64,000 bases of DNA from a virus. The stretch is taken from the IMG/VR virus record IMGVR_UViG_3300005253_000946. One strand, 5' to 3'. Positions 34,336 through 53,970 of this stretch are shown in pieces; positions within the stretch are counted from its first letter, which is position 1; each line of letters opens with the position of its first letter. The notes under the pieces were generated by a model. It had not been told where the DNA came from. It was given only the letters and a program-made list of their open reading frames with translations, and ran no database searches. Position numbers and translations under genes: made by a program.

Positions 34336-34378
34336 TTTCTTAAAAGGCTTTGTAAAAGAAGCCATCTCTGTTAAAGAT

Positions 34379-37221: not shown

Positions 37222-37506
37222 TTAAGTAACCTCTTTAGTTTTTGGTAGTATGTGTACACCCATTCTACAAGGGGCGTCTGGGCTTGATTCTATCTGTCCA
37301 TGACTGAAACAAGGAGTGTCCTCATACCAGGGTTTGTCGTGTATCGCACAAGAGTACTGCCCTGGAGTATCTCCGATGAGATGTTTACATTTTGTGTCAA
37401 GACCCTTATGAGCGATTAAATTGCCTTCTACGATACCTTTATCTGGGTCATTTACAATAACTACAAAACAACGTATACAGCAGTAGCCGCAGCGTAAGCA
37501 AATCAA
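37222..37506 (-). CDS. YkgJ-family cysteine-cluster protein
   Basis: CLRCGYCC...CKHL...CAIHDKPW...PC. Confidence 0.75.
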   Translation of the reverse strand: MICLRCGYCCIRCFVVIVNDPDKGIVEGNLIAHKGLDTKCKHLIGDTPGQYSCAIHDKPWYEDTPCFSHGQIESSPDAPCRMGVHILPKTKEVT

Positions 37507-37765
37507 TTTCCGTTATTAACGTCGGTTGGGTTTACTGTTTCCCATGCTTCTGTAAGATCTTCAGGTCTTAATATAAATACTGCTCTCCCGCCAGGAGAAG
37601 GTACTATATTATAACACTTTGAATCATGTATAGAATCTGGTTTATATGCTACAGCCTGTTTATGACCTTTCCAGCGTATAGGACGTGCCCATAAATTTAC
37701 ATAATCTTCTTGTATAGCTAGTAGAGCTTCTATCATATTCATGTATTGCTCCTAATATAGAGAAA

Positions 37766-37791
37766 GGGCGACCTCCCGAAGGAAGCCGCCC
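37766..37791 (-). terminator. Hairpin/terminator downstream of the CUA tRNA
   Basis: GGGCGGC..TTCG..GTCGCCC followed by TTTCTCT on the minus strand. Confidence 0.55.
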
Positions 37792-37799
37792 TAAAGTTC

Positions 37800-37875
37800 T
37801 GGTGACCCAGGTGGGATTCGAACCCACAACTAAATCTGTTAGAAGGACCTACTCTACCAGTTGAGTTACCGGGTC
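37800..37875 (-). tRNA. tRNA with CTA anticodon (amber suppressor-type); weak anticodon stem
   Basis: Canonical 76-nt cloverleaf GACCCGG TA ACTC AACTGGTA GAGT A GGTCC TTCTAAC AGATT TAGTT GTGGG TTCGAAT CCCAC CTGGGTC A CCA; positions 34-36 = CTA. Confidence 0.7.
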
Positions 37876-38486
37876 TTGTCTATTTTTATTTTATTAAAGA
37901 CGGTCCATCTATTGCCTCTACAAAATGTGGGAAGTTGTGCATCACAGTTAGGGCACACTATTCTAAGGTTTATCCTCCGGTTGTCTGCACTATCTCCATT
38001 AATGTGATCAAGACGTAAGGTAAGAGGTTTGCCTTTCCATTTAGGACCTAATTTACAGATAGCACATTCCTCGTCTATTAGCTTTTCGCGTAGCAATCTT
38101 TTTCGTAATTTAGAAGAAGCAATAGGTGGACCATCTTTAATAAGATAATACTCGATTGGACGTCCTTTTCCATTAAAACAGTTTTTGCCAAAAGGATTAA
38201 AATGAGACGTGTCAAGTTCTAAGGCTTTTATACGTCTACCTACACTTTTATAATTAGCTCCCCGTGGATCTAGACCCAAACCTCTTAAAACATCAGCCAC
38301 AGATTTACTTTCAGGAACTAACTCTTTAAGTTTGTTATCACTCCAAGATCTCTGTGACCATTTAGAGGATAAGCTATATTTTCTCATCCAATAACGAATG
38401 GAAGTAGCGCTTTTTCCTGTTTTAGCTGCTATCTGTCTTATAGATAATTTCTCGTCTATTAGGTTTTCAAGGAGGTGTTTCTGCAT
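37866..38486 (-). CDS. HNH homing endonuclease 1 (N-terminal HTH)
   Basis: CAIC...LRLDHINGDSADNRRINLRIVCPNC; probable start MQKHLL (38486); the stop overlaps the tRNA 5' end. Confidence 0.9.
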   Translation of the reverse strand: MQKHLLENLIDEKLSIRQIAAKTGKSATSIRYWMRKYSLSSKWSQRSWSDNKLKELVPESKSVADVLRGLGLDPRGANYKSVGRRIKALELDTSHFNPFGKNCFNGKGRPIEYYLIKDGPPIASSKLRKRLLREKLIDEECAICKLGPKWKGKPLTLRLDHINGDSADNRRINLRIVCPNCDAQLPTFCRGNRWTVFNKIKIDKTR

Positions 38487-38541
38487 CCTTAACTTGTAGC
38501 TCATTTGTACAGGTTAAGTCAAGCGAAACACCTCCCATATA

Positions 38542-38559
38542 CAACTGAGCTACTGAGCC
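38542..38559 (-). pseudogene. 5' fragment of a tRNA (acceptor strand to D-loop)
   Basis: GGCTCAG TA GCTC AGTTG; GGCTCAG can pair with the 3' acceptor strand CTGGGTC of the tRNA at 37800. Confidence 0.5.
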
Positions 38560-39584
38560 ATTGTCTCTATCTCTTCGAGAATTCGTACATCCTCAACCTC
38601 CCTGATCTCTTTAGCTATCTGTTCCGCTGAAATTTCTCCAACAGCTTCTGCTGAGAGAGAGACTTCTACATCATATTGGACACAGGGGTCTGTATCCCAA
38701 CCTTTTGGTGTAGGAGATGTAGGGATATTGAAGATCACTGCGTCTGCTAACCAAGGCTTATTAAGTTTCTTAGCTACATCAGCAGATTCAGCCCTAAGAG
38801 CATTCTTGATAGCTGTTGAAGAGATCTTGTTGTCGATAGCTGTCTTAGGCTCTATCTCGGACATTGCACGCCCGCGTAGGAGGCATTGAACTACATGAAT
38901 AGCTCTAAACCTATCTCTTTGGCTGTCTTTGTCATTTAAGTTGCTTACCATGCTGCTCCAGTTGGAGTGTTTGGTATTAAGCTCAAATGCACGTTGAGAC
39001 TCTTTATAGTTGGTTTTGACCTCTCGAATTGATTTTACGAGGGTGGCTTTAGATACGCCGCATTCAGCAGCGATTAGGTTTCTTACTTGGTTGCTAAGAT
39101 TCATAGAATCCTCCGTTGGTTAAGTGGTTGTTAATTTGGAACTTTTTTTGGTTAAGTTCATAACCAACGGAGGATCGCGTGAAGATGTAGTAATCTACGT
39201 CATGGCGTTAATATAACCTTTCTTGGTTAGAGTTACAAGGGGGTAATTGTATCTACAAACGGGCTACGTTTTATCTTGTTCTTTATTCCAAATCATCATT
39301 ACGAAGTTGGCTACGTCTACCATATCCCCACTATCTAGATGTTTGACTAACATCTCTTTTAGGTCTGATATTTCACAGTCTTCCATAAACCAGCCACCAC
39401 GACCTTCGTCACGTTTCTCGGCAAGCTTTTCGATCATAGCCTTACCTAGGTCTTTTACCCCTTCTTCGTCGTATATACGATTTAGAATATCTCGCAGATC
39501 AAGTTCGTATTCAGGATAAAGGGTTCTAGAAATATTCAGTGATTGATGTATTAAACCTTTTAATTCTTCAGATACTTTGCTCAT
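38550..39584 (-). other. Hypothetical CDSs 38550-39104 and 39264-39584 (the second has a VDVANFVMMIW MazG-like helix)
   Basis: Intact ORFs with RBSs. Confidence 0.65.
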
Positions 39585-39606
39585 CTATACTCCTCTTATA
39601 ATTGTA

Positions 39607-39693
39607 TGGTGCCGGGGACGGGAGTTGAACCCGCACGCAGTTTATTACTCTGGATTTTAAGTCCAGTGTGTCTACCAATTCCACCACCCCGGC
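39607..39693 (-). tRNA. tRNA-Leu (TAA)
   Basis: CTGGA-CTTAAAA-TCCAG arm, long variable arm, CCA. Confidence 0.95.
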
Positions 39694-41375
39694 TAAGAAC
39701 CCATGTAGAAGGTGTAGACCTTAACATTTGATTCAACAGATAGGAAGTAGGCTAGTAACCATTCATCTTTAAGCTGTGGAACTTTTGTAATAGGTCTGTC
39801 TTCTATTTCACCTATACCTTCCAGAAATACATGATGCTTGTCTTGCACAACTTCTATCATCTTATCGGTTTCATCCAGTACATGGCTCCATGTCGGGTTT
39901 TCGAGAAGTGGACCTATATAAGTTGACCCATGTTCGCCCCAGTAGATGTCTTTAAACTGTACAAAGACTACTCTACCTTCTACAGCTACATCTCTCTTTT
40001 TATGACCATCACATTCTATACAGGAGTCAATTACGTATTTTCGTTGCCTACTCATGTATCAAGCTCCGATTGTTTTAGACTAAACTTTTCTGTGCCAGTC
40101 CATAGGTTTAACTGCATCGCTCCCTTACCATTATATGCTAATTTTTCTCCTGATTTCTTTACACCCTTTTGTTGCGCGAAGCTGGAATTAGCGTACTTAT
40201 AGGAGCTAGGTGGTGTAGGATGTTTAGGCGTACCTTTTATTTTGACCTTACTATTGCCATCTGGAAAGACTTCGATAGTGTAGGTCATTATAGGTTTATC
40301 CTTATCCGGCAACGCAATAGGAAGACGGTCTGTAACATCCCAAGCTATTACGTTCATACCTGTAATAGAGCATATCTTCTTACCCGCTTCCTGAACTACT
40401 CCAAGGTTACGAAGCTCTGATAAACGTTTATGACCACTATTTGTTTTGTGTATATCGTTTATCTCTCTACCGGTAAGAGGTCCATTCATATACAAAAGGT
40501 GGTAGACTTTCCATCTGGTCCAACTTAGTAGTCCATTTTCTTTAATCTTTTTCCAAGCATCTTTACTGGATTGTCTGACTCTTTTACCCACTAGTTTCCT
40601 CCTTTATTTTTTCTCTAGGGACCCATACTACTACGTTACCTTTGTATGTATGGTCATTATTGTTCCCTATAATAGGGAGTGTGAAATGGTTTTTTTCTTT
40701 GTGATTGAACACGGTACATCGCCGTTCCTCGTCGACCCAACCTCTAGGATCACCACCACACCAATATTTTATCGCATCATTGAAGGGGTTAGTAGACCCT
40801 TCTGGGTACATTGCGATAGTAAATTCGTATTCCTCTAATAACAGATCCAGATTAGTCCAGAGAGTGTCCCAGGTTATTCCGTATTCTGCGTCTAGGTGTT
40901 TAGCGATCATAGCTATGGTTCGTTTAGCTATGTCTTTAGTAATATAAATATGGTGATTGTCTGCTACTTCGTAAACGTCATCTACATCCCAAGTGTCATC
41001 GACGAATGAGTCGTGGTTTTGTATTTCGATCTTCCAATTAGTTACTTCTGCAGGGCTATCTCCTGTTAGAAGACCATCACCTATCGCACGGTCTACCATA
41101 GATAGTAATCTGGCTTTTAGATTTTCTTCCCGTACACCATTTAATTCATAAGTTACGTCTAGTTGCATTCTTAGTTTTGTCATAGTTTATCTCCAGGGAT
41201 TATTGTGAGTGTTCAAGAGCCGACACCACCCTAGAAGTGATGCCGACTCTCTACAGGTCCATAGGTTGTGGTTCTGATTGTAGGCTTCCTGTACAGCCCA
41301 AAGTCTCCTACGAATAGCATTCAGTCCAGCCGATGAATTTTCCCCTGTACCTTTCTCAGGAATAGTTCTCGACAA
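39693..41375 (-). other. Hypothetical CDSs (39693-40055, 40052-40591 with an HTH-like N-terminus, 40584-41183, 41187-41375)
   Basis: Coupled ORFs. Confidence 0.65.
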
Positions 41376-41405
41376 TCACCGCTATGGCATATAGGAGATT
41401 TTTTG

Positions 41406-41481
41406 TGGATCAGGAGGAAGGAATTGAACCTTCAACCACCAGAGCCAAATTCTGGTGCTCTACCAATTGAGCTACTCCTGA
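41406..41481 (-). tRNA. tRNA-Gln (TTG), complete copy downstream of HNH 2
   Basis: TCAGGAG/CTCCTGA acceptor stem, CCAGA-ATTTGGC-TCTGG arm, CCA. Confidence 0.9.
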
Positions 41482-41938
41482 TTGGATAAAGGTTTTGTGC
41501 TTGTTTCCAATGCAGCTTTTTATGGCAATTGGAGCACAACACGACACATTTTCGAATTTCTTCTTCTATCTTCTTAATTGACTTCAGGTTATGTACTGCA
41601 TGGCTGATATTAAATTCCTTCTTACTTGCGTCTGTATGATGAAAATCGAGACATGCTGGGTGACTTTCTCTACATTTAATACACTTTACTCCATCCTTAT
41701 ATTTGAGAAACCATTCTCGGTGCTTTTTAGCTAAACGCTGTCTTTTATTTTTGTAGTACTGTGGGTTGTTCCGGTAATGCTCCTTAAGATTGAGAGCATT
41801 ACAGGGCCGACAGTAAGACGCATACTTAGGAGCACCAGTCGCAAGCTGGCCTCTAATATTAAAGTGTTTAACATCTTTTTCTTTCTGGCACCGAACACAG
41901 AGCTTCTTCATATAGACCCCGAATAAAAATTTCCTCAA
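41432..41938 (-). CDS. HNH homing endonuclease 2
   Basis: CIKC...CLDFHHTD...KCVVLCSNCHKKLH; the 3' end reads into tRNA-Gln; probable start MKKLC. Confidence 0.9.
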   Translation of the reverse strand: MRKFLFGVYMKKLCVRCQKEKDVKHFNIRGQLATGAPKYASYCRPCNALNLKEHYRNNPQYYKNKRQRLAKKHREWFLKYKDGVKCIKCRESHPACLDFHHTDASKKEFNISHAVHNLKSIKKIEEEIRKCVVLCSNCHKKLHWKQAQNLYPIRSSSIGRAPEFGSGG

Positions 41939-41966
41939 CCCTACTAAGTTTTGGTATATGTGTCAA

Positions 41967-42004
41967 GATCAAATCCCGTTGTCTTACCCTTAGACCACTC
42001 CTGA
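41967..42004 (-). pseudogene. 5' half of tRNA-Gln (TTG), truncated just after the anticodon loop
   Basis: TCAGGAG TG GTCTAAGGGTAAGAC A ACGGG ATTTGAT C, immediately followed by TTGACA. Confidence 0.85.
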
Positions 42005-42163
42005 TCAGAATTTTACCCTCTCAACCCTTATAACATTTTTAAAGGCAAAAAAGAGGGGCCAGAGTTGGGGGACTCTGGCCCCTACACTCACAGATGGGGA
42101 GAGACTCTAAGAGCCTCTCCGAGGAGGAGGGACTTATAGTATAGACCTTTTAATAAGGTCTCG

Positions 42164-42409
42164 TCAAAAACTACTAACCAGATCCATTCCTATATCGCTA
42201 CCTCTAGACCCTTTACAGGAATTGCATCGACAATTAGAATTTCTAGGCCACCTAGCCCAACCAGTTTCAAATGGCTCTTTGCATTGGGCACATAGCTTAA
42301 CAACTGTGCCTGTTTCAAATATACAAAGAGGTTTTGCTTCTTTGGCTCTTTCCTTGTCTTTGTCGTAAGTGATTGTACCTACTACCAGGTTTTTGTTTCG
42401 TTTCCCCAT
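42164..42409 (-). CDS. Small Cys-containing hypothetical protein (MGKRNKNL...)
   Basis: Track ORF trimmed, since its 5' part is tRNA sequence. Confidence 0.55.
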   Translation of the reverse strand: MGKRNKNLVVGTITYDKDKERAKEAKPLCIFETGTVVKLCAQCKEPFETGWARWPRNSNCRCNSCKGSRGSDIGMDLVSSF

Positions 42410-42435
42410 TAGTATCCTTATATTGAAAAATTGTA

Positions 42436-42513
42436 TGGAGCCGAATCTCGGATTCGAACCGAGGACCTGAAGTTTACAAAACTCCTGCTCTAGCCAAGCT
42501 GAGCTAATCCGGC
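42436..42513 (-). tRNA. tRNA-Thr (TGT)
   Basis: GGAGT-TTTGTAA-ACTTC arm, CCA. Confidence 0.93.
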
Positions 42514-42526
42514 GTAATAAGTCTTT

Positions 42527-42610
42527 TGGCTCCGGGAGCCGGGGTCGAACCAGCATAGGATTTCTCCACGAGTTAACAGCCCGCTGCATTCCCTATTATG
42601 CTATCCCGGA
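42527..42610 (-). tRNA. tRNA-Asn (GTT) with an unusually long variable region
   Basis: TCCGGGA/TCCCGGA acceptor stem, GCGGG-CTGTTAA-CTCGT arm, 13-nt variable region GGAGAAATCCTAT. Confidence 0.85.
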
Positions 42611-42979
42611 TTTATGTATATTTACAACCTCTATCATTGAGCTACTCTGGTTTAACCCGGCTCTAAGGGTAAGGTAATTAATGCAGAACATCAACTATCT
42701 TAGTTAACCCCCTTAGAGCCTTGAGAATCGGGATCGGAAAGCTCCCTTACCAGCTCACATCGAAATCCTTTTAAACGAGCCAACGCAATTTTTGCTTTGA
42801 TGGTACTGTTCAGTCTTACCAACCAATACAGCCCTATAAGCTCTTAAGTGGTCTGCCACTGCCCTACCTAGTTCAAGAGTAGAGAAGGAAGCTTCATACA
42901 GCCTTTCGGCAATTTCGACTCTGGACGATTCTGTGCTTTTATTCTATATTCCGGAATAAGGAATATTTATTAGTTAAAC

Positions 42980-43173
42980 CCACAGGTGCTCGGACGTAAC
43001 TCCGATGTGAGGTATCCCCCGTTTGCTGGTGTCACCCGGTTATGTCTGACTCGGGTCACCTTTCACCAACGGCCTAAGCTTTGTAGTATGGTTTTTCACC
43101 GCTGACTCGACCTAGTACCACCCGTATTATTCGGGCTATGGGCGTGCATATACTTCACGCCATACACCTGTGG
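42980..43173 (-). ncRNA. Putative ~195-nt structured ncRNA of unknown class
   Basis: Closed by a 9-bp CCACAGGTG/CACCTGTGG helix; internal hairpins GGCGTG/CACGCC, CCCG/CGGG and TCGGA/TCCGA; no ORF; strand inferred from the flanking tRNAs. Confidence 0.5.
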
Positions 43174-43195
43174 TAATCATACTAGGTATGATTGC

Positions 43196-43271
43196 TGGGC
43201 CGCCCTATGAGAATTGAACTCACATACCTGGCTCCACAAACCAGTGTCTTAGCCGTTAGACGAAGGGCGGC
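43196..43271 (-). tRNA. tRNA-His (GTG), complete copy downstream of HNH 3
   Basis: G-1:C73 pair, CTGGT-TTGTGGA-GCCAG arm, CCA. Confidence 0.93.
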
Positions 43272-43283
43272 GATGTTGTGACT

Positions 43284-43799
43284 TTACCAGTTTTCTCTGG
43301 TTTTTAGTGCGTGGCACCAGACACATCTTACCTCAAGATTCTCTACATTATTGTTATTTCTGTCTCTATCTTTATGATGAACATCTAACATTTTTTCTTT
43401 GACTTCATCAAAAGGACAGTCTGAGTTACTACATTTTTTACCATACTCTTTGAATGCCCTCGTTCTGTAAATATATTGGCCGTGTTTTAAGTTTCTTCCA
43501 CCACTCTCTTGATTGTTTATTGTAATAGCACAGCTCTGAGAACAGTACACCCTTCCACTTTTACTGTTACGTAGTCTCTTTTTGGTAACCTCAATAGGTT
43601 TCTCACAGTTATTACATTTAGTGGAAATAAGTCCATGCCCGTGTTTGATGCTATAGTAAGTTCCACTACAGCTCTGGCTACAAAAAGCTAATGGACGTTT
43701 TTTAAGTCGTCTCCGTTCTTTCCATACAACTGTGCTACACTGTGCACAGTTCTTCTTAACTCTCCAAACCCCTTTTATCTTTTTCTCTTGAATATGCAT
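43284..43799 (-). CDS. HNH homing endonuclease 3 (N-terminal Cys-rich fingers)
   Basis: LDVHHKDRDRNNNNVENLEVRCVWCH; repeated FCSQSC/YCSQSC motifs. Confidence 0.9.
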   Translation of the reverse strand: MHIQEKKIKGVWRVKKNCAQCSTVVWKERRRLKKRPLAFCSQSCSGTYYSIKHGHGLISTKCNNCEKPIEVTKKRLRNSKSGRVYCSQSCAITINNQESGGRNLKHGQYIYRTRAFKEYGKKCSNSDCPFDEVKEKMLDVHHKDRDRNNNNVENLEVRCVWCHALKTRENW

Positions 43800-43805
43800 T
43801 GACTA

Positions 43806-43834
43806 ATGGTAAGCTAGGCTGGATTGGATGTCAA
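43806..43834 (-). promoter_or_regulatory. Sigma70-type promoter TTGACA-N17-TACCAT, 6 nt before the HNH 3 ATG (leaderless)
   Basis: Read directly from the sequence; no Shine-Dalgarno. Confidence 0.75.
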
Positions 43835-43872
43835 ACCACAAACCGGCGCATTACCAATCTGCCACGGACGAC
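43835..43872 (-). pseudogene. 5' half of tRNA-His (GTG), truncated at the end of the anticodon loop
   Basis: G TCGTCCG TG GCAGATTGGTAATGC G CCGGT TTGTGGT, then TTGACA. Confidence 0.85.
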
Positions 43873-43874
43873 TT

Positions 43875-44180
43875 AGTTAAAATTGCAAGGCATATTCGAT
43901 AACCGGCTTTCCACCTATTCTAGAATAAGCTTCTATGTTTTCAGACATCCCGGCTGAGATGATTAAAGCTAGCCACCATCTCACTTCTTGACCTGTCTTC
44001 CATACTATCGAATATGCATCAGGAACCTCACGGTTCCCGAAATATGATTGCATCTCGGAGCGTACCGGAATGTTATAAACTTTCCGTTTCCTTGACGGGG
44101 CAACTACTAGTCTAGCACACCGTTTAATATGGCTGCCGCCACAACGGTCACTAGCGACTCATCGCCCTACTTATATAAGG
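43875..44180 (-). ncRNA. Putative structured ncRNA of unknown class
   Basis: 12-bp helix 43890-43901/44006-44017, GGGAACC-GTGA-GGTTCCT GNRA hairpin, GAGATGGT/ATCATCTC helix; a 58-codon ORF without a good RBS also overlaps. Confidence 0.4.
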
Positions 44181-44183
44181 TCT

Positions 44184-44259
44184 TGGTCGGGATAGTAGGA
44201 TTTGAACCTACGTCTCCGCGTCCCAAACGCGGTGCTAAGCCGGATTCAGCTATACCCCG
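44184..44259 (-). tRNA. tRNA-Pro (TGG)
   Basis: CCGCG-TTTGGGA-CGCGG arm, CCA. Confidence 0.93.
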
Positions 44260-45583
44260 TAGCTGTGGATACTACTACGCTGTTTTCTTTTTTTCAATAG
44301 GAGCTATCCAGGGTAAGATACCGTCAAAAGGTACTTTCTCTCCAAATAGTTTTTCGTATAACTCTACAGCCGGTCTCCACTCTTCTACGGTACCGTCGTC
44401 ATTGTCACTAAACTCAACAACTGGAAAATACTTTTTCAGACGTATTAGCGCAGTCGTAACTACTATGTCGTAGGGATATTTACCAGTCTTACAGTAATCG
44501 TGATACAGACCAGATTTTTCATCTTTAGAGTCCATCCATATGACCGGATCAATATTCTGCTCTACACCGAAAGTCTCAAGACCATCGTCTAATTTTCCAT
44601 TTATCCAAACATAGGTGTTGGTTAGTTCTGGATCGCCAGTACCGCACCCGCCCGCAATAGGTACTCCAGCCGTGTCGACTATCTTTTGCACGTCTTCAGA
44701 CCACGCTGTGAATAAGTCTTGTTCTAGAACTAGTGGTCTGTACCAATAGTGCGTATAACCCAAAAGTATCCTCCTGTGTGTTTAGTTAGGTTTGCAACCA
44801 CCTTTTTTGGTGTGGTTGGTAATAGCTGCTATGAGACTCTCGATGTTAGGTTCAGTAGGTCTGGGTCCGCCTATATTAAGAGACAGATTATCGCCTTCCA
44901 TTATATTCTTGAAGTCTTTTATAGGGCACTCATCAGCTTTGAAACAATTATCGCAATCAGGGAAGCCTTTACTATCTCCTTCCATGATACTCATTTCTAC
45001 CTTGATAACTCTGTTTGACTTGTCGAAGTCTCTCATTAGAGTTAGAAGGAATGCTTCTAAGTTTGAGCCTGGTTTGAATGCGGCGTCAAACCTTTTTTCT
45101 AACGCTCCAAGACTACCTATAATTGTAGATAAAGATTTATCACTAAATTCACCAGCTACTGACGAAGCTAAGTGTATAATGTCACTAAGAGCGCGTGCCT
45201 GCCCCCGTGTGATACTGTAGTACATCTCATCGTCGTTTTTTTTATCTTCCATGTGGTTGCTCTTCCTTATCTATAGGGAATCCTATTTTTTTGGTTTCAG
45301 TACACTCTTCGTCTGAGCATTTGTACTCTTCTACCCCATCGTCTATAGATTCGAGGATCATAACACTACCACAGTCACACCATGTTTTGGTATACCCCAT
45401 GAGAAGTTCCTTAATAGTAAAAAGTTAATGTAGATAAGCTAAGGGGTGTTTACCCCCTGTTTTAATACCACTGACTAGGCAGCTTTTCATCTGCTTTATC
45501 AGTAGTCCTGCCCGACAGTATCGCGTCGACTTTTACTCATGTTAGTCTCCTAGTAAAGAGTTGTGGTTTTTGCCTTCATAAAT

Positions 45584-45611
45584 CTTATGACACAAACCTA
45601 CCGGTTATTTC
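45584..45611 (-). promoter_or_regulatory. Putative phage promoter GAAATA-N16-CATAAG
   Basis: Shares CATAAGATTTATGAAGGCAAAAAC and a TACTAGGAG RBS with the unit at 28491. Confidence 0.65.
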
Positions 45612-45626
45612 ACTAAGAGAAGTGCT

Positions 45627-45702
45627 TGGTGGATCCTCCCAGATTTGAACTGGAAACCCACGCATTATGAGTGCGGCGCTCTACCAATTGAGCTAAGGAT
45701 CC
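45627..45702 (-). tRNA. tRNA-Met or Ile2 (CAT)
   Basis: CCGCA-CTCATAA-TGCGT arm, G1:C72 pair; Met and lysidine-modified Ile cannot be separated by eye. Confidence 0.88.
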
Positions 45703-46131
45703 ACATAAGAGTTAATTATTCTCATACCTAGTTTTAAGGGTTTCTACGACATATTTAGGTAAGAAGTCAGGAGCGCCATCACGGATGTCATAGTACCCTA
45801 GTAATCGGTCACTACAACTACCTCTAGTCGTTAGATGATGGTGTAACGCCCAAGCACGTTTCGCTCTCCAACCAGCTATAAGTCTGCCTTTACTTTTACT
45901 GAAGTTGTCGTTGGGGTGGACTACCGCTATACCTACATAAGCTTTGTATCCAGCTATTACAGCAGCTACTGTTACTTTTCTTGTATCAACTCTAGTTAGG
46001 TCTAATTGTTCTCCAGCCATTTCTGTGTGGAAGAATATAGGACTAAGTTTCAGTACTTCTTTGTCATTCGGCCATTCTTGTATACTTTTTTGTTTCGACA
46101 TGATTATCTCCGTTTTTGTTTATAGATTGCT

Positions 46132-46206
46132 TGGTGGGTCCACAGCGATTTGAACGCTGACAATTAGCTTAAAAGGCTAAGATGCTACCAATTACATCAT
46201 GGACCC
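46132..46206 (-). tRNA. tRNA-Lys (TTT)
   Basis: TTAGC-CTTTTAA-GCTAA arm, CCA. Confidence 0.93.
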
Positions 46207-46236
46207 GTGAACATTTCTGGAGTGTCTAAATACCAA

Positions 46237-46312
46237 TGGTAGCACGGACTGGACTTGAACCAGCAACCTTCCCCGTATGAGAGGGATGTTCCACCATTTG
46301 AACTACCGTGCC
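46237..46312 (-). tRNA. tRNA-Met or Ile2 (CAT), second copy
   Basis: TCCCT-CTCATAC-GGGGA arm, CCA. Confidence 0.88.
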
Positions 46313-47401
46313 TTAGCCACTAATATCAGTTGGACCAATTATACGTTTCGCAAGATCTTCACTTTCCAAATAAAACTCGTCTTTCCAGTATACTGTTTCA
46401 GTCTCTATTGCAGGTAACTGAGGATTAATTTTAACTGAAGTCTCGTATACGAAACCGAAGTTACGCAATATTTGCCCAAACCTCAAGTCGGGGTTTTTAT
46501 CTACGAGTTCACTTAACATCTTGGCCAGTAGTTTATTTGCTTCTTGCCTTTTCATATTATAACTTTAACTCCTATTTCTCCTTGTAGACGGTTTGTCATG
46601 TCCTCATTAGATTCTATTCCAAGGTGGAGATAGTCGCACATTTCAGAGTAGACTCCAAAAGCTTTGTCTCTAGTTTCTGATTCTGGATGGCGATAGGCTA
46701 TAACTTCAAATGTGTGCATTAGGTGTCCGTAGTAATGAACAGGTAACATGTCAATAGCCTGCTGGTTGCTTTTACCTATATCTTTGATGGATTGGAATTC
46801 TGTGTTGATCAAAAAGGATGAAGGTATTTTTTCTGCTGGTTGAAGCATTATACTACGTATCCAACGAACCATCATCTTAATTTCTTCAGTGCTAGCGTTG
46901 TCTGGTCCACGTAGCCCAGTTATTAGAGTCGCTTGCTCCTTGCGAGGTAAATTCATTACCCAATCTTGTAAAACACTATCCATTAATGATCTCCTTTTCT
47001 CTCTTTTTTGTTTTAGATTTAGTGGTAGATCTTCGCCTGTACATATTCCTACCTTTTTCGTCCTTACGGTCGGCCACTACTAAAATGCCGTCTGCTACAA
47101 GAACATCCAACCAGAAAGCTACAGCTCCTGTTTCTTCATCCAAGTAGTCTCCGTATATATGACCCTTTTTGTCCCATACACCTTGTTCTCTTAAATATTT
47201 GGCCCGTTTTCGTACTTGCCATTCAGTAGTACCTAAAAACTTCGCTATAGGTTTACACCAAGGACCTACCTCACAGATAGCTATGAGAAGTATTAAAGCA
47301 GTAAGCATGTCTTCATCTTTAAGACAAGGGTCTATTTTACGTAAGTTTCTCTCATAAAACTTCCTGGTTCTAGGTCTACCTCTAGTCTCGGATGTGTTCA
47401 A
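46313..47401 (-). other. Hypothetical CDSs (46313-46555, 46552-46983, 46976-47401)
   Basis: Coupled ORFs. Confidence 0.65.
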
Positions 47402-47678
47402 TTATTCCCTCCGAATCAGGTTTGCCCCATTTACGTTTTTTGTTTATCTCAAGCTTCTTTTTAGCCTCTTCCAGTAAATCGTAGCCCACTAGGTCTGAAT
47501 GTCTGAGTAGGAGTATAAGTATGTCTGCTGCTTCTACAGGGTCTAGTGGATGCTCTAATAACTCCTCAGCTTCTTTGTGTATATGTTTAACGACAGGTAC
47601 GATCCGTTCTTTACCTCCACCAAAAGTCTCTCTTGCCCAGTGGATAGCGTGTATTGCAAATTCTGCGTATTTCTCCAT
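47382..47678 (-). CDS. DUF550 / dATP-dGTP pyrophosphohydrolase (MazG-like) protein
   Basis: WARETFG...HIHKEAEEL...EAADILIL...KLEINKKRKWGKPD. Confidence 0.75.
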   Translation of the reverse strand: MEKYAEFAIHAIHWARETFGGGKERIVPVVKHIHKEAEELLEHPLDPVEAADILILLLRHSDLVGYDLLEEAKKKLEINKKRKWGKPDSEGIIEHIRD

Positions 47679-47823
47679 AGAAAAGCTCCTTTTAAAATTT
47701 CAGACCCACCCATCTAGCGGTGGGGCTAGACAGGTGGGCCTATAGGTGTATCGACTTACAGGCAGGGGATACTTCCTGGCGATACGTTTATATCTTACCT
47801 AACTTTTGGTTAGGAAGATAGTT

Positions 47824-47909
47824 TGGTGCCGGAGGCGAGAATCGAACTCGCACACCCGAAGGCACGAGGTCCTAAACCTCGCGTGTCTGCCTAGTTCCAC
47901 CACTCCGGC
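47824..47909 (-). tRNA. tRNA-Leu (TAG)
   Basis: CGAGG-TTTAGGA-CCTCG arm, long variable arm, CCA. Confidence 0.93.
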
Positions 47910-47911
47910 TT

Positions 47912-47988
47912 TGGTGACTCCAACGGGATTTGAACCCATGTTGCCAGGGCGAAAACCTGGTGTCCTAACCAAGCTAGACGATGGAGTC
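47912..47988 (-). tRNA. tRNA-Glu (TTC)
   Basis: CCAGG-TTTTCGC-CCTGG arm, CCA. Confidence 0.93.
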
Positions 47989-48026
47989 TATGTATCTCTT
48001 ATAACATAAAGAGTAGCTAAATTAAA

Positions 48027-48107
48027 TGGCGGTGACGATGGGATTTGAACCCACATAAACCTCCTTGACAGGGAGGTACTTTACCTAGTCTTTTAAGCTA
48101 CGTCACC
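48027..48107 (-). tRNA. tRNA-Asp (GTC)
   Basis: CCTCC-CTGTCAA-GGAGG arm, G73, CCA; enlarged D-loop. Confidence 0.9.
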
Positions 48108-48108
48108 G

Positions 48109-48184
48109 TGGTAGGACTGGTCAGGCTTGAACTGACGACTTTCTGCGTGTAAGGCAGATGCTCTCTCTACTGAGCTACGGCCCC
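48109..48184 (-). tRNA. tRNA-Val (TAC)
   Basis: TCTGC-CTTACAC-GCAGA arm, CCA; one acceptor-stem mismatch. Confidence 0.88.
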
Positions 48185-48219
48185 GAAGAGATAATAAACT
48201 AACTGTACAAATATTTCAA

Positions 48220-48295
48220 TGGCGGGAAGTAGAGGACTCGAACCCCTGACTCAAGATTTGGAGTCTTGTGTGTTACCAGTTACAACCAACGACCC
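48220..48295 (-). tRNA. tRNA-Trp (CCA)
   Basis: CAAGA-CTCCAAA-TCTTG arm; two acceptor-stem mismatches. Confidence 0.8.
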
Positions 48296-48296
48296 T

Positions 48297-48373
48297 TGGA
48301 GTCGGCGGACGGAATCGAACCGTCGATGATCGGTTTTGCAGACCGACGCTTTAACCAACTTAGCTACGCCGAC
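48297..48373 (-). tRNA. tRNA-Cys (GCA)
   Basis: TCGGT-CTGCAAA-ACCGA arm, U73, CCA. Confidence 0.93.
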
Positions 48374-48398
48374 ACTATAAGATTCGAGTATAATTGCG

Positions 48399-48490
48399 TG
48401 GCGGAAGGAGTGGGACTCGAACCCACAAGCCGACTTACGCCGACCACCTGATTAGCAGTCAGGCTCAATAGCCAGTTCTGACACCCTTCC
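48399..48490 (-). tRNA. tRNA-Ser (GCT)
   Basis: CCTGA-CTGCTAA-TCAGG arm, long variable arm, G73, CCA. Confidence 0.93.
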
Positions 48491-48499
48491 TATAATTGC

Positions 48500-48511
48500 T
48501 GGTAGCTGGAA
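48500..48511 (-). pseudogene. 3' remnant of a tRNA (TCCAGCT A CCA) downstream of HNH 4
   Basis: Pairs 5 of 7 with the CGCGGGA 5' strand at 48946-48952 (C1 is unpaired, as in fMet); followed by the GCAAT trailer shared with intact tRNAs. Confidence 0.5.
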
Positions 48512-48518
48512 TGGGGCC

Positions 48519-48875
48519 TTACTCTACTTTCTTTTCCCATAAAGTTTTATGTGTTCTTATCCGATGACAATTAGCACATCTAATTTCACACTTTTCAATC
48601 TCAGCCCTTATCCTATTCATAGACACACATCTCTTTACAAGATTTGAAACAGAGTCTTCTTTCTCCCCGCGAACATGGTCAAAATCAAGAGCACGGATAT
48701 CTGAAAAGCCGCAGTCCACACAAGGATGCTGTGACAAATAGTCTGCGATAAACTTCTTGCGAAGAGCGAACTGCTTTCGTTTAGATAACCGTGATCTCTC
48801 TTTATATATTTCTTTGTTAGCTTCGTAATGTTGTTTTGCCGCTTGCTTCTGCTTCTCTTTGTCTTTATAGGCCAT
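48519..48875 (-). CDS. HNH homing endonuclease 4
   Basis: PCVDCG...ALDFDHVRG...EIEKCEIRCANCHRIRT. Confidence 0.9.
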   Translation of the reverse strand: MAYKDKEKQKQAAKQHYEANKEIYKERSRLSKRKQFALRKKFIADYLSQHPCVDCGFSDIRALDFDHVRGEKEDSVSNLVKRCVSMNRIRAEIEKCEIRCANCHRIRTHKTLWEKKVE

Positions 48876-48881
48876 ACCGAC

Positions 48882-48910
48882 AGCTTATGGGGTTCAAATA
48901 TCTTTGTCAA
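48882..48910 (-). promoter_or_regulatory. Sigma70-type promoter TTGACA-N17-TAAGCT, 6 nt before the HNH 4 ATG (leaderless)
   Basis: Read directly; same geometry as the HNH 3 promoter. Confidence 0.75.
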
Positions 48911-48952
48911 GATATGAGACCTACGCTGGAACCAACTCCAGTCTATCCCGCG
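48911..48952 (-). pseudogene. 5' half of an initiator-like tRNA-Met (CAT), truncated after the anticodon loop
   Basis: CGCGGGA TA GACTGGAGTTGGTTCCAGC G TAGGT CTCATAT C, then TTGACA. Confidence 0.8.
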
Positions 48953-49686
48953 TCTATACGTACGTAAGGTTCGCACACAGCTAATACTTCTTCAACCTTA
49001 AATAAATCTAATCTATCATCTGTTCGTACACCAGTCTCCATATCTATCCAACCTATACCTGCTGGAGATTGTTCGAAAGCCTCTAAAATATCTGATATAT
49101 TCTCTGGTGTTATTCCTCCAGCCCATCCACAATAGTGTCCAGTAATAGGTATAGGGAGTCCTTTTTCTAAAACCGATACTCCTCTACCACCACTACTGTC
49201 AAATAGAACATGGTGTCGGATATTTAAAGCTGCTGTCTTTTTCCACAGGTCTACAGTATTACTCTTATGCTGAGTGATGATATCTATCTTCCGGTTACGC
49301 ATTACATCTACCCACCATGCGAATCCGGTCAGATCGTCAGGATACTTTTGAACATTTATCTGTATCCGAGAAAATACTTCTCCCATGTAATCAGGATTGA
49401 AGCCAAAATACTTTAGCCACTGAGGGGCTGAAATTTCCTCACCTTCAACAAAAGCTTTAGCCACTGAGCCGCAAATATGTAAAGCCAGATTTATCTTATT
49501 CTCTAACTGATAAGCCCATTTTCCTAATTCACCAATCCAATTGCTTGAAGGATACCTGTCACGTCCTTGTTTAGTGCTTATTAAAATACCCCACTCTACG
49601 AATGGGTATTTTTTAGAAAGAGCGTACATATCGGCAGAAGATACGTGATCGTCAACTCCTGTAATAGTTACTCGATTTAGTTTCAT
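48943..49686 (-). CDS. TIM-barrel protein, phosphoribosylanthranilate isomerase (TrpF)-like
   Basis: VTITGVD, EWGIL, LFDSSGGRG, GWAGGITPENI and WIDMETGVR motifs. Confidence 0.65.
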   Translation of the reverse strand: MKLNRVTITGVDDHVSSADMYALSKKYPFVEWGILISTKQGRDRYPSSNWIGELGKWAYQLENKINLALHICGSVAKAFVEGEEISAPQWLKYFGFNPDYMGEVFSRIQINVQKYPDDLTGFAWWVDVMRNRKIDIITQHKSNTVDLWKKTAALNIRHHVLFDSSGGRGVSVLEKGLPIPITGHYCGWAGGITPENISDILEAFEQSPAGIGWIDMETGVRTDDRLDLFKVEEVLAVCEPYVRIDAG

Positions 49687-49868
49687 TTTTTGTCCTTCAG
49701 GATCGTATCTGGATAGTCTATAAAAATAAATTCCTGATCATCTGGTAGTGTAGGTATTGAATGTAGAGATCTGGGTTGAATAGCAGTTACAACAGTTACA
49801 TTATACTTTTTTACTAGTTCACGTAACTCCTGGAAAACTTCAGCTTGTTTTTTATATGACATTTTGTA

Positions 49869-50165
49869 CTATCCCGCATTCACATCTATTGAAGCTATAG
49901 CCCATATTGCTGTTAGAGCTACATCTGCTAACTCGTGTTTTACTTTTTCTTCGTCATTAGAGTGGACTGCTTTAACTAATTCGTATATTTCCTCTATTAA
50001 GATTCCCAGTGCTTCGTGTTTGTTAATAAAAGCTCCACGACCATGTTTCATCTTAGCTTTATGGAGAATCTCATTTACAAACCTTTCTGCATCACCTTGG
50101 TCTTCGTAAGTAATATGTTTTCTTAGTTCTCCCGGTTCTTGATTCATTTTATCGTTCCGATCCAA
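49869..50165 (-). CDS. MazG-like NTP pyrophosphohydrolase
   Basis: HEALGILIEEIYEL...HELADVA. Confidence 0.7.
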   Translation of the reverse strand: MDRNDKMNQEPGELRKHITYEDQGDAERFVNEILHKAKMKHGRGAFINKHEALGILIEEIYELVKAVHSNDEEKVKHELADVALTAIWAIASIDVNAG

Positions 50166-50379
50166 ATTGTATGTTTAAGAGATTATGTAATGTTTTTGCT
50201 TCTAGGGTACTCATCATCACTTGCCCACAAACATGCGTATAACTGGTGTCCTCTATAAAGGTTCCATTCTCCATCTTAAAGTCGATACATATACCTGGTT
50301 GATTGTCACTAGGAATATTGGCTATTCCTATATTGTCAACTGCCTTGAGTGTAATCACTTTGTATTTCCTTAAAATTGC

Positions 50380-50457
50380 TGGTCCACTAGATTGGATTTG
50401 AACCAATGACCGCTCGGTTATCAGCCGAGTGCTCGAACCAGACTGAGCTTCTAGTGG
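50380..50457 (-). tRNA. tRNA-Ile (GAT)
   Basis: CTCGG-CTGATAA-CCGAG arm, CCA. Confidence 0.93.
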
Positions 50458-50471
50458 TTATATAATTGTGG

Positions 50472-50633
50472 TTATTTTACTTTAAATTTGGAAGTTACTT
50501 CTGCTCTCTCAACAGTTGCTGGATTAAAACATTCAGGACACATAACGACACCATCTCGTTCGGCCTGCTTTATGTCTACCTCAAATTTATGTCCGTTTAT
50601 ACACTTAGCCTGCATTGTTACTTTCTGATTCAT
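50472..50633 (-). CDS. 53-aa zinc-ribbon-like protein between a duplicated tRNA-Ile 5' end and tRNA-Ile
   Basis: MNQKVTMQAKCINGHKFEVDIKQAERDGVVMCPECFNPATVE...; GGAG RBS; not in the ORF track. Confidence 0.65.
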   Translation of the reverse strand: MNQKVTMQAKCINGHKFEVDIKQAERDGVVMCPECFNPATVERAEVTSKFKVK

Positions 50634-50651
50634 TTTCACTCCTTCGGAATT

Positions 50652-50663
50652 AGCTTCTAGTGG
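50652..50663 (-). repeat. 12-bp duplicate of the tRNA-Ile 5' end (CCACTAGAAGCT)
   Basis: Identical to 50446-50457. Confidence 0.75.
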
Positions 50664-51244
50664 CCGTGAAATAATATTATCATGGAATTGTTATCTATTC
50701 CATGCTTGTAGGCTATCTTACTGAAGGCCTCTTCATCATAGGCTAGAGCTTTACCGTCTGCTTCCCGTTCCTTGTTGGTGGTGATCATACCTTGTATCTC
50801 TGCAAAAGCTTCTACGCTTGCGGCGACTACATAGGCTGCTTTCTGTTCATCTGTCATAATGTTCTCCTTAAATGAATGCTGGGCGTTCCTTCGAGTGTTC
50901 TAAAACAATGCATCACGCGGTCCGGTACTGTGTGTGTAATCAAGACTCGAAAGCCTTGTTAGCACTACCACAGAAGGTGACCGATGTAATAGGATATACC
51001 CTTGTTTGGGGTCTGGTACTTCCTTCTCAGTGATCCAACGAAATGCTATCTGGATGCCCCGGTTCTCTGTAATTAACGCTACCTCTTCAGCAGTATTTAG
51101 GTCGATGAAGCAGTCATCGGGAACGTCAGCAGATGTGAAATTCCTAGCTAACTGTTCCTCCCCTACTATGTCTAAGGTCAGCGAACCGTAATGATTGTTG
51201 TACTGTGTTGTATTTTCCACTTTAATTCTCCTTTAAGTATTGCT

Positions 51245-51265
51245 TGGTGCCCTAGGAGGGATTTG
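51245..51265 (-). pseudogene. 3' part of a split tRNA-Arg (ACG)
   Basis: CAAAT CCCTC CTAGGGC A CCA; the acceptor strand pairs perfectly with GCCCTAG at 52073-52079. Confidence 0.8.
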
Positions 51266-51304
51266 TTAGGTGTTTTTCTTTTTTCTTTATGATATAAAGG
51301 TAAC

Positions 51305-52045
51305 ATGAAGACGTATAAAATTCGACAATTTATAGAAAATCCTAAATTGCTATCTCAATTTAAATCCAGGGAAGTTGTTCCTATGCTTTGTGAGTATTGT
51401 AGAAAAGATGCTTCAGCTAGAAAGAATAGAGTACAGTCGAAGATTAACCATGGATTTAAGAATCGTTTCTGCTCTTCATCTTGTTCTATAAAATATCAAG
51501 TAGTAAGTAAGGGATTAGAATTAACCAAAGAGTATTATTGTGTTAAGTGTAAGAAAGTGTTTAAGAGAATCTTTTCACAGAGTATCAGATCAAAAAACTG
51601 CTTCTGCTCAAAATCGTGTGCGGCAAAGTATAATAATGCTCATAAGTCTTACGGCATTCGTAGATCTAAGTTGGAAATTTGGTTAGAGCGACGTCTTGTT
51701 GAACTATATCCTGATTTAGAGATTCTCTTTAATTATAAGAAAATTATTGAATCTGAACTTGATATTTATATCCCTTCTCTAAATCTAGCTTTTGAGATAA
51801 ATGGTATTTTTCATTATAAACCTATCTTTGGTCAAGAAAAGTTAGAGCAGATCCAAACTAATGATTCTAAGAAGAGTAGTCGATGTACTCAAGAAAATAT
51901 ATCTTTACTTATTATTAACTGTTCAAAACTTACGCACTTTAAGGTAAAGGAGTTTTACAAGTATTTAGGGATTATCGAATACCATATAAATATCTTAGTA
52001 GATCTATTTGGTAGTCAAGATAGTCCCCGACATGTGGCTTCGTAA
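51305..52045 (+). CDS. Zn-finger plus Vsr/DUF559-like PD-(D/E)xK endonuclease inserted antisense within tRNA-Arg
   Basis: CxxC/FCSxSC repeats; ELDIYIPSLNLAFEINGIFHY...D..K motif; noticeably AT-rich. Confidence 0.8.
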   Translation: MKTYKIRQFIENPKLLSQFKSREVVPMLCEYCRKDASARKNRVQSKINHGFKNRFCSSSCSIKYQVVSKGLELTKEYYCVKCKKVFKRIFSQSIRSKNCFCSKSCAAKYNNAHKSYGIRRSKLEIWLERRLVELYPDLEILFNYKKIIESELDIYIPSLNLAFEINGIFHYKPIFGQEKLEQIQTNDSKKSSRCTQENISLLIINCSKLTHFKVKEFYKYLGIIEYHINILVDLFGSQDSPRHVAS

Positions 52046-52079
52046 TCATATGCTACTATCCGGGCTGAGCTACTAGGGC
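52025..52079 (-). pseudogene. 5' part of a split tRNA-Arg (ACG)
   Basis: GCCCTAG TA GCTCAGCCCGGATAGTAGC A TATGA TTACGAA GCCAC ATGTC GGGG; the anticodon stem does not pair. Confidence 0.75.
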
Positions 52080-52526
52080 GTTATTGTTTAAGGAAAGATA
52101 CAGTAGCACGGAATCCATTTGTCGCTGGATTCACACTTATATTCTTCGACTGCTTCAGTATCTGTACTACTTAGAAATTCTCTACAATACTCCGTAGTAC
52201 AAAAACCTTCTCCAAGAAATTCTTCAGGGACAGCATGGAAGCCGTTTCCTTCTGGATCTATGGACATTATAACTTCTTTGTCTTGATCCAGTTCTTGTAG
52301 TTGCTTTATAAATTCGCTTAATTTCATAGTGTTCTCCTATAATTGTTCTGCCTACTACCCTGACGAACCGCTGCTCTGTAGGCATAATTCTTCAAGGTAA
52401 TCAATAAGGGCTATACCGTCGGAATAGTCGGCTTCTCCTTTAAATAGCTTGCTAACATAGTCAGCTGCGGCTGCCTTAGCCTTTTTCTCTTGTTCTGTCA
52501 TGTTCCTGTTTCCTTTGTATAATTGC

Positions 52527-52623
52527 TGGCGGAAGGAGTGGGATTCGAACCCTACACGGCTTTTACACCTAACGGTTTTCAAAACCGCATCCGGTAACCA
52601 GCAATCTTTCGGATTATCCTTCC
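52527..52623 (-). tRNA. tRNA-Ser (TGA)
   Basis: GCGGT-TTTGAAA-ACCGT arm, long variable arm, G73, CCA; enlarged D-arm. Confidence 0.85.
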
Positions 52624-52892
52624 GCTGTTATATTAAACTGCTGCTTGAAGTGTTTCTAATGAATTAAAAGGCCCTACCCAAGGAGTTTTTTTGTCCTGAA
52701 TCATTTCAAAGGTTGCCACCATTGCGTCTATGTCTGGCAGGCTTTTAAAATCTTTGTCGACTTTTACATAATACCACCCGTTAGGGAATCGGTGAGCTTC
52801 ATAGTCAGGTCCATGAAATCCTTCTTGGCAATGTATAGGGTTAGGTATTATAGGCTTCTCTGTTTGCATGTTAGTCTCCTTTAAGATTGCAG

Positions 52893-52979
52893 TGGTGGGT
52901 CAGGTTGGATTCGAACCAACGTAGGCCGAAGCCACCGGGTTTACAGCCCGGTCCTTTTGACACACTCAGGCACTGACCC
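52893..52979 (-). tRNA. tRNA-Tyr (GTA)
   Basis: CCGGG-CTGTAAA-CCCGG arm, long variable arm, CCA. Confidence 0.93.
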
Positions 52980-52983
52980 ACTG

Positions 52984-53060
52984 TGGTGGTCGAGACCGGA
53001 ATTGAACCAGTGACACCTAGATTTTCAGTCTAGTGCTACTACCAACTGAGCTACTCGACC
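52984..53060 (-). tRNA. tRNA-Phe (GAA)
   Basis: CTAGA-CTGAAAA-TCTAG arm, CCA. Confidence 0.93.
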
Positions 53061-53064
53061 TCAG

Positions 53065-53904: not shown

Positions 53905-53970
53905 CTCATAGACCTTTGTGGTTTAAGTTCTACTGAGATGATAATACTATAACTAGTGAGTTGTCTATAA

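Follow-up and report, generated by a model that had tools for sequence, protein, structure and literature searches.

Why should endonuclease genes lie inside the tRNA genes of a virus? The question is raised by a 64,000-nt stretch (the window) of the virus record IMGVR_UViG_3300005253_000946, which comprises 174,885 bases, is ∼95% complete by estimate and comes from a marine sediment metagenome. The window holds a cluster of ∼21 tRNA genes and a tmRNA, as called by ARAGORN and Rfam, and the host is presumably bacterial, given the sigma-70-type promoter motifs described below. An initial annotation, made from the letters alone, had placed all five endonuclease genes at tRNA genes and had read them as selfish cassettes that insert in the anticodon arm and restore the gene with a recoded copy. 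Indeed, each of the five, four encoding HNH proteins and one a PD-(D/E)XK-type enzyme, lies inside a broken tRNA gene. The genes are most probably (∼0.8) those of free-standing homing endonucleases whose recognition site would be the anticodon loop, which travel with a recoded replacement and which probably repress themselves. The cassette reading is supported by eight pairs of occupied and empty alleles in cultured sister phages, by the appearance of the same layout in viral and bacterial loci that are unrelated and by the preference of a nuclease family for the matching tRNA.

The five cassettes contain the features listed here. All features given without a program, family or comparison were read from the sequence, and the fetched loci are the ∼400 collected for the three HNH families.

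37800–37875 (−): complete tRNA with a CUA (amber) anticodon and a weak anticodon stem, probable replacement (ARAGORN, Rfam).
37866–38504 (−): HNH protein with an N-terminal helix-turn-helix, 212 aa, start maybe 6 codons later (phrog_10822, E 6e-41).
38517–38522 (−): TTGACT, −35-like, without a good −10 at 17 bp.
38542–38559 (−): 18-nt 5′ tRNA remnant, acceptor strand to D loop.
41406–41481 (−): complete tRNA-Gln(UUG) with a new D arm and anticodon stem (ARAGORN).
41432–41911 (−): Gln HNH, 159 aa, with zinc repeat, long helix and HNH; the open reading frame (ORF) enters the tRNA by 50 nt (phrog_2255, E 1e-32).
41938–41974 (−): predicted Gln promoter/operator (family-wide spacing peak 20–22), with the old loop at 41968–41974, TTGACA at 41961–41966, an inverted loop copy at 41949–41955 and a −10-like hexamer at 41938–41943.
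41967–42004 (−): orphan 5′ half of the old tRNA-Gln(UUG), positions 1–38/39.
43196–43271 (−): complete tRNA-His(GUG), replacement (ARAGORN, Rfam).
43284–43799 (−): Cys-rich His HNH, 171 aa, of a His/Ser-associated family (phrog_1271, E 6e-12).
43806–43834 (−): sigma-70-type promoter of the His cassette, TTGACA-N17-TACCAT.
43835–43872 (−): orphan 5′ half of the old tRNA-His(GUG), G-1 to position 38.
48500–48518 (−): degenerate 3′ remnant of an fMet-type tRNA, with CCA end.
48519–48875 (−): fMet HNH, 118 aa, a homologue of the Gln HNH without the N-terminal zinc repeat and without a replacement tRNA (PHROG match, pairwise comparison).
48882–48918 (−): predicted fMet promoter/operator (half-site read by hand), with the old loop, TTGACA at 48905–48910, an inverted copy at 48893–48899 (5/7) and a −10-like hexamer at 48882–48887.
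48912–48952 (−): orphan 5′ half of an fMet-type tRNA(CAU); the closest intact tRNAs among the fetched loci are initiator-type.
51245–51265 (−): 3′ remnant of tRNA-Arg(ACG), from ∼position 56 to CCA.
51305–52045 (+): Cys-rich PD-(D/E)XK-type endonuclease, 246 aa, antisense in tRNA-Arg(ACG), without a working replacement (homing-endonuclease PHROGs).
52039–52079 (−): orphan 5′ half of tRNA-Arg(ACG), to position 38.

This layout is not an assembly artifact, because independent contigs reproduce the letters of the window. Logan contigs from the probable source runs matched 37492–50009 with 0 differences and 49980–54000 with 3; the whole Gln cassette (41365–42044) was also covered, with 0 differences, by a 2019 run of a second study. 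Profile searches across the whole genome (175 kb) found nucleases of the cassette families only at the five tRNA sites.

At the Gln, His and fMet sites, the 5′ half of the tRNA ends at position 38/39, as first annotated, and TTGACA begins 0–1 nt further on, at 41966, 43834 and 48910. A TAnnnT hexamer lies exactly 17 bp from each of these motifs. This arrangement occurs at 5 of the 23 TTGACA in the window, and three of the five are the Gln, His and fMet sites. The gene that follows each half matches PHROG HNH families, and the complete tRNA of the same anticodon that was said to follow or overlap the HNH stop is present for both Gln(TTG) and His(GTG). At these two sites a displaced native half is orphaned and a diverged complete copy supplied, which is not the case for fMet or Arg(ACG); the latter sites are left broken, without a replacement, and these two of the five tRNAs are simply destroyed. 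Over the first 8 nt, the new tRNA-Gln is identical to the orphan Gln half. When the old half is fused computationally with the 3′ part found downstream, the product is called as tRNA-Gln, as would be expected were that 3′ part the original. The D-arm type of the old His half recurs in an intact tRNA-His (locus L106). At Arg(ACG), the acceptor strands still pair 7/7 across the insert and ∼positions 39–55 are gone, and the 3′ part at fMet is degenerate.

The amber tRNA is probably a third replacement, after Gln and His. Its positions 8–10 form the stop codon of its HNH gene. Upstream of that gene, the first 7 nt of the 18-nt remnant can pair 7/7 (2 G-U) with the 3′ acceptor strand of the amber tRNA, which is suggestive, and only that, of a link between the two; the remnant has a tRNA profile score of only 8.0, under the thresholds used. 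The presence of a CUA tRNA (37800–37875) in a genome where TAG serves as a stop is an observation of its own: it may be a suppressor or an odd Arg(UCU), for which an alternative reading with a 9-nt loop is possible. Recoding of TAG was rejected, as TAG terminates 24 of 131 long ORFs. A 22-nt sequence resembling a tRNA 5′ end also lies right before tRNA-Asn (42629–42650, −) with no nuclease gene, and is possibly the scar of a lost cassette.

The comparison of occupied with empty alleles had been proposed as a check on the cassette reading. Empty sites were found in relatives of cultured phages that carry the Gln/fMet HNH family, and not for the phage of the window itself. Eight occupied/empty pairs were available, with flanks ∼98%–99% identical where measured: JimJam/Spelly at Pro, Phe, Arg(CCU), Arg(ACG) and Leu, Paradiddles/NootNoot at Thr, PegLeg/Bongo at Met and wV8/Alf5 at Trp. 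In all eight, the anticodon loop is unchanged and the stems linked to the nuclease gene are changed with compensatory substitutions. JimJam has five members of the family and its sister Spelly none. At the Pro site, which is empty in ∼25 sister records, six of the seven substitutions in JimJam fall in the anticodon stem and are compensatory; the remaining one is in the D loop, and there is one extra base. The loop and the sequence from the T arm onward are identical to the empty allele, and an inverted pair of the operator type described below is present at 21 bp. The Arg(CCU) site of JimJam, in which an old 5′ fragment of ∼23 nt is followed by the HNH gene and a rebuilt tRNA, has the layout of the window together with an empty control. 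Stems are likewise changed in a compensatory manner at Arg(ACG) and Leu. A mirror layout is seen at JimJam Phe and Paradiddles Thr, where a new T stem completes the upstream tRNA and the old 3′ end lies behind the HNH gene. In PegLeg compared with Bongo and wV8 compared with Alf5, the whole Met or Trp tRNA is swapped along with the HNH gene, again with the loop kept; the Met site of PegLeg is empty in 14 sister records, and PegLeg gp102 is of one family with the fMet HNH of the window.

Three further observations concern these sites. The replacement tRNA-Arg(CCU) of JimJam (L351:9310–9440) has no normal D arm and a long variable region, with the same loop, and is missed by ARAGORN. In PumpkinSpice (L343:410–1090), the Pro site occupied in JimJam is taken by a different HNH, the tRNA-Pro is of yet another allele, and a tRNA-like RNA that lacks annotation lies upstream. 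The insertion of WhereRU at the Pro site is a third one, of the mirror type.

A second line of evidence comes from the sequence upstream of the Gln/fMet-family genes, for which 74 distinct loci were compared. Within 100 nt upstream of the HNH gene, exact copies of the 7-nt loop of the downstream tRNA occur 14 times in forward and 11 times in inverted orientation. Shuffling the loops between loci gives expectations of 1.3 and 1.2, and 0 of 1000 shuffles reached the observed level. Inverted pairs of the same triplet peak at spacings of 20, 21 and 22 bp (15, 22 and 14 loci, versus ∼2.5 expected for each), and no such peak is present in the viral loci of the His and amber families. The repeats are matched to the anticodon at this fixed spacing: of 26 loci, 18 have a pair whose triplet agrees with the downstream tRNA, and agreement with the upstream tRNA is seen in 2 of 18. 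Because the similarity is limited to positions 32–38, the spacer need not be complementary and the −35 box is often inside, the pair would more likely serve as a DNA site that accommodates two protein units, both on the same face of the helix, than as an RNA hairpin. The Gln cassette of the window has an exact pair at 21 bp, whose left copy is the loop of the old half itself. The fMet cassette has an imperfect copy (5/7) at 21 bp, which escaped the scan for exact anticodons and was identified by eye. A target-like site thus overlaps the promoter of the nuclease, exactly in Gln and imperfectly in fMet, as a pattern of sequence only. At JimJam Phe, the left loop copy of the operator is part of no old tRNA and directly precedes TTGACA, which indicates that the adjacency of loop and TTGACA is a property of the cassette. 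The T loop as a second half-site in the target was considered and dropped, as its spacing would be 23–24 rather than 20–22.

The nucleases fall into three HNH families and one PD-(D/E)XK type. The four HNH proteins had been described as mutually dissimilar, which fails for Gln and fMet: these are 34% identical over 94 aa (E 8e-13) and both match phrog_2255, so they are homologues. HNH PHROGs were matched by four ORFs and homing-endonuclease PHROGs by the fifth; the domains are HNH and PD-(D/E)XK, not GIY-YIG. The invariant Cys/His/Asn columns are mostly kept, and the nuclease at the Arg site has an E-x-D...E-x-N-G motif at residue 151. In the predicted structure of the Gln HNH (predicted local distance difference test score, pLDDT, 94), residues 1–43 resemble Hpy99I with a Z score of 6.4 and a root-mean-square deviation of 0.7, over these 43 residues only. 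Hpy99I is a homodimeric restriction enzyme, and the likeness is a weak hint that the Gln HNH may bind as a dimer. A Foldseek search gave no match at E ≤ 0.001. An attempt to find residues that track the anticodon bases gave marginal columns (N108, z 4.2; R57, z 4.8; null maximum ∼4.1), which are confounded by kinship and were not used. A further candidate HNH at 30601–30984 was rejected, being a weak match without an HNH motif.

The association with tRNA genes extends to the relatives of these proteins. A tRNA is present in the locus for 167 of 185 matches of the Gln/fMet family and for 94 of 101 of the amber-HNH family (phrog_10822). In 22 of the 74 distinct Gln/fMet-family loci, the HNH stop codon coincides with tRNA positions 8–10, so that gene and tRNA are welded. 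Same-anticodon 5′ halves were found upstream in 5 of the 74 by a strict detector (0.6 expected), and more are visible by eye. The His family occurs in bacterial genomes, mostly Patescibacteria, where tRNA-His comes directly after the gene in 29 of 60 loci, and five bacterial loci keep a clear His half. An antisense tRNA gene adjoins the PD-(D/E)XK relatives in three of five loci (ARAGORN), and a tRNA 3′ end is visible in a fourth. As separate observations, the His-family HNH precedes tRNA-Ser(UGA) in 16 of the 60 bacterial loci (L353–L432), a second target class, and the His HNH (43284–43799) and the PD-(D/E)XK nuclease (51305–52045) have a common Cys-rich N-terminal module (41% over 59 aa), putatively one binding module on two catalytic domains.

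A mechanism can be proposed on this basis. The enzyme would recognize the DNA of the anticodon loop and cut in or next to the anticodon arm. The cassette would bring a promoter, the nuclease gene and the tRNA part needed for rebuilding, with the same loop and rewritten stems, which presumably block recutting. Two inverted loop copies, two helical turns apart, flank the promoter in the Gln/fMet family, and this arrangement would most likely be an operator for self-repression. During repair, the broken end on the right side may find its pairing partner in the conserved T arm or in the 3′ end; on the left side, an end finishing in the anticodon loop may anneal to the left half-site of the operator. 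The microhomology supplied by this left copy could explain why three junctions lie at 38/39 right before TTGACA, and could enable the cassette to enter a non-homologous cluster. Repair that misses the replacement part would cost the tRNA, as at fMet and Arg(ACG), a loss that a lytic phage could afford. The operator and microhomology steps seem to us only slightly more likely than not. A wider proposal is tentative and falls just short of an even chance: that a widespread family of small Hpy99I/EndoVII-like HNH proteins reads anticodon loops as DNA and has been retargeted to many anticodons, that the inverted pair acts as operator and as landing pad for entry into the matching tRNA gene of unrelated phages, and that the family, rewriting stems as it spreads, is a chief driver of the replacement of tRNA alleles in phages and of oddly shaped tRNAs.

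Four other explanations were weighed, which even taken together are improbable. Were the inserts introns, they would splice out and the tRNA halves would rejoin; the breaks do lie near 37/38, the canonical intron position of archaeal and eukaryotic tRNAs, and the Gln and Arg acceptor strands are still complementary across the insert. However, no group I or II intron was matched in the window by Rfam at E ≤ 1, the inserts are almost entirely promoter and ORF, with the nuclease ORFs separate and under their own promoters, and the downstream Gln and His tRNAs are complete by themselves. Splicing could rebuild neither Arg, which lacks ∼positions 39–55, nor fMet, with its degenerate 3′ part, and we give introns almost no weight. 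A very unlikely alternative is that the proteins are anticodon ribonucleases that cut host tRNAs, the linked phage tRNA being a resistant antidote in a toxin-antitoxin system or in host takeover. An HNH domain is needed for the tRNA-cleaving Septu defense (PMC13096335), and every enzyme is linked to a single anticodon and accompanied by an altered tRNA; but this leaves unexplained the insertion into tRNA genes, the patchiness among near-identical sisters and why fMet and Arg were lost with nothing to replace them. The −35 box lies between the two inverted loop copies, pointing to DNA binding, and the N-terminal repeat resembles a DNA restriction enzyme, Hpy99I.

The cassettes might also be kept for a benefit to the phage, by refreshing tRNA alleles against host anticodon nucleases or by releasing 5′ halves as decoys. 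For these two side ideas of the initial annotation no support was found, although T6 does escape Septu when SegB drives the amplification of a tRNA locus (PMC13096335). Occupied alleles do have new tRNA sequences, but in many loci erosion has left nothing of the half except its loop, the Gln half has a terminator 50 nt upstream of it and two tRNAs are destroyed. The usual target of host anticodon nucleases is the anticodon loop, precisely the part that is kept unchanged, and a benefit of this kind is rated as most unlikely. Somewhat less remote, but still improbable, is ordinary intronless homing, in which intergenic nucleases cut at a distance, and co-conversion together with illegitimate recombination in a region dense in tRNAs leaves the halves and altered tRNAs as a side effect, with no link between enzyme and anticodon. 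Free-standing T4 enzymes cut far from their own genes (PMC2988022), and many Gln/fMet-family members lie between intact tRNAs. The tree of 73 proteins of this family, a quick tree, is poorly resolved, and nearest matches have the same anticodon in just 12 of 72 cases (null mean 3.8). Against distant cutting stand the agreement of the operator anticodon with that of the downstream tRNA, the clustering of occupied-allele changes in stems beside an unchanged loop and the position of the three window junctions at one and the same point of the tRNA.

Homing directed at the anticodon loop, with a recoded replacement, is thus preferred, and several findings weigh against it. The loop is unchanged, so the enzyme would still bind, and the model does not account for resistance. 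The operator triplet differs from the anticodon of the neighboring tRNA in 8 of 26 loci (Patelgo is an example). No inverted loop pair is present at the His, amber and Arg cassettes, so that the operator argument covers only two of five, and the model does not yet explain the His cassette, which shares the 38/39 junction without a detectable pair. In Patescibacteria the His half ends 13 nt ahead of TTGAC, not 0. Full halves are a minority, and most Gln/fMet-family members lie between intact tRNAs or have a loop copy only. For the phage of the window, neither an empty site nor the old allele in intact form was recovered by protein searches with the His HNH and a neighboring gene, by exact DNA patterns of the old Gln and fMet halves, by blastn against cultured phages or from sediment contigs. 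The contigs of four sediment runs contained no joint that skips any cassette; contigs drop rare variants, and this is not evidence of absence. A generic pattern of half a tRNA followed by TTGACA gave two matches, neither of them a cassette.

Analogous arrangements are known from other mobile elements. Integrative elements that target tRNA genes restore the tRNA with a replacement fragment, and like the cassettes they insert in a tRNA gene and leave a displaced fragment at one end. They depend on an integrase and on att cores that are nearly identical, and it is usually the 3′ end that they replace, whereas the insert in the window is a nuclease ORF only and its replacement is deliberately divergent. 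SegB of T4 and T6, a GIY-YIG enzyme, is likewise a free-standing nuclease in a phage tRNA cluster with cleavage sites inside tRNA genes; its gene has the stop at the point where the 5′ end of the next tRNA, tRNA-Arg, is processed (PMC2330249, PMC13096335). It cuts at the T loop and drives inheritance of the T4 cluster (PMC2330249). In contrast to the cassettes, SegB reads a universal T-loop motif in many tRNAs, lies between intact tRNAs and has no mapped promoter nearby; the cassettes have an HNH or PD-(D/E)XK gene inside one tRNA gene, are apparently anticodon-specific, possess their own promoter and a replacement part, and copy the anticodon loop. The cassette nucleases are not members of the SegB family, and they are not introns. 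Endonuclease ORFs of fungal mitochondria carry a replacement gene end (PMC3630166). In Allomyces atp6 and in Glomus atp6, atp9, cox2 and nad3, as in the window, insertion is intronless, a diverged copy is supplied and the native part is orphaned (PMC3630166). The fungal targets are protein-coding, the replacement is C-terminal and the enzyme in the atp6 case is of the LAGLIDADG type, whereas cassettes of the window type target tRNA genes in phages and bacteria and may replace the 5′ or the 3′ part. By analogy, such a cassette may work like a free-standing homing endonuclease joined to an Allomyces-type replacement module.

For the putative operator, the nearest likeness is to I-TevI of T4, a homing endonuclease that binds an operator similar to its homing site, overlapping its own promoter, and thereby represses itself (PMC2988022). 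The target-like operator over the promoter is, in the window, a prediction from the letters. I-TevI is an intron-encoded monomer with one operator, in contrast to the two inverted 7-nt loop copies, 20–22 bp apart, that vary here with the target tRNA. HNH genes have been widely noted in phage tRNA arrays (PMC6409571, PMC5966550, PMC8421152). Those of T5 (F-TflI, -II and -IV) and of cluster M mycobacteriophages also lie in tRNA clusters, and the passages that cite them mention no split tRNA, replacement part or operator copied from an anticodon (PMC2330249, PMC5966550). The accessible full texts contained no account of the layout of half tRNA, promoter, nuclease and replacement, nor of anticodon-copy operators; Pope 2014 and Akulenko 2004 are known by citation, and overlap with them is possible. 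The former reportedly implicates HNH genes in the diversity of the tRNA repertoire. The cassettes are apparently a variant of free-standing homing that is real, recurrent and unpublished, of which the window is a rich rather than a unique example.

If the reading is correct, a rewritten spare part would be a third route, besides introns and inteins, by which a homing nuclease can occupy a conserved gene, here an RNA gene. It would offer a mechanism for the different alleles of one tRNA in close phage relatives, for pseudo-tRNAs and for odd tRNAs in clusters, and it bears on the causes and the course of phage tRNA diversification in the face of host anticodon nucleases. Small nucleases with different three-base specificities in one scaffold would be a good natural model for the evolution of DNA recognition. 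The hypothesis can be tested in near-identical pairs of cultured phages on Streptomyces and Mycobacterium smegmatis hosts.

Several other features of the window were recorded. Between tRNA-His and tRNA-Asn, 536 nt (42655–43190, −) have no ORF of their own of at least 50 aa and no Rfam match at E ≤ 1, and fold with −177 kcal/mol (z −4.2), far more stably than shuffles; large structured RNAs occur in phage tRNA clusters, and the region is a candidate for one. A tRNA-Trp(CCA) at 48220–48295 (−), called by Rfam and not by ARAGORN, has unpaired acceptor strands and looks like a chimera or pseudogene; a contig from the second study differs there at 48248 and 48269. ARAGORN also missed a tRNA-Ser(UGA) at 52528–52623 (−), a weak Rfam match, and the phage tmRNA at 54876–55336 (−), which Rfam matches with 144 bits. 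A SNF2-type helicase and a small ORF (32872–34495, +) both have acidic F-x-x-E-x-x-K-x-A leaders.

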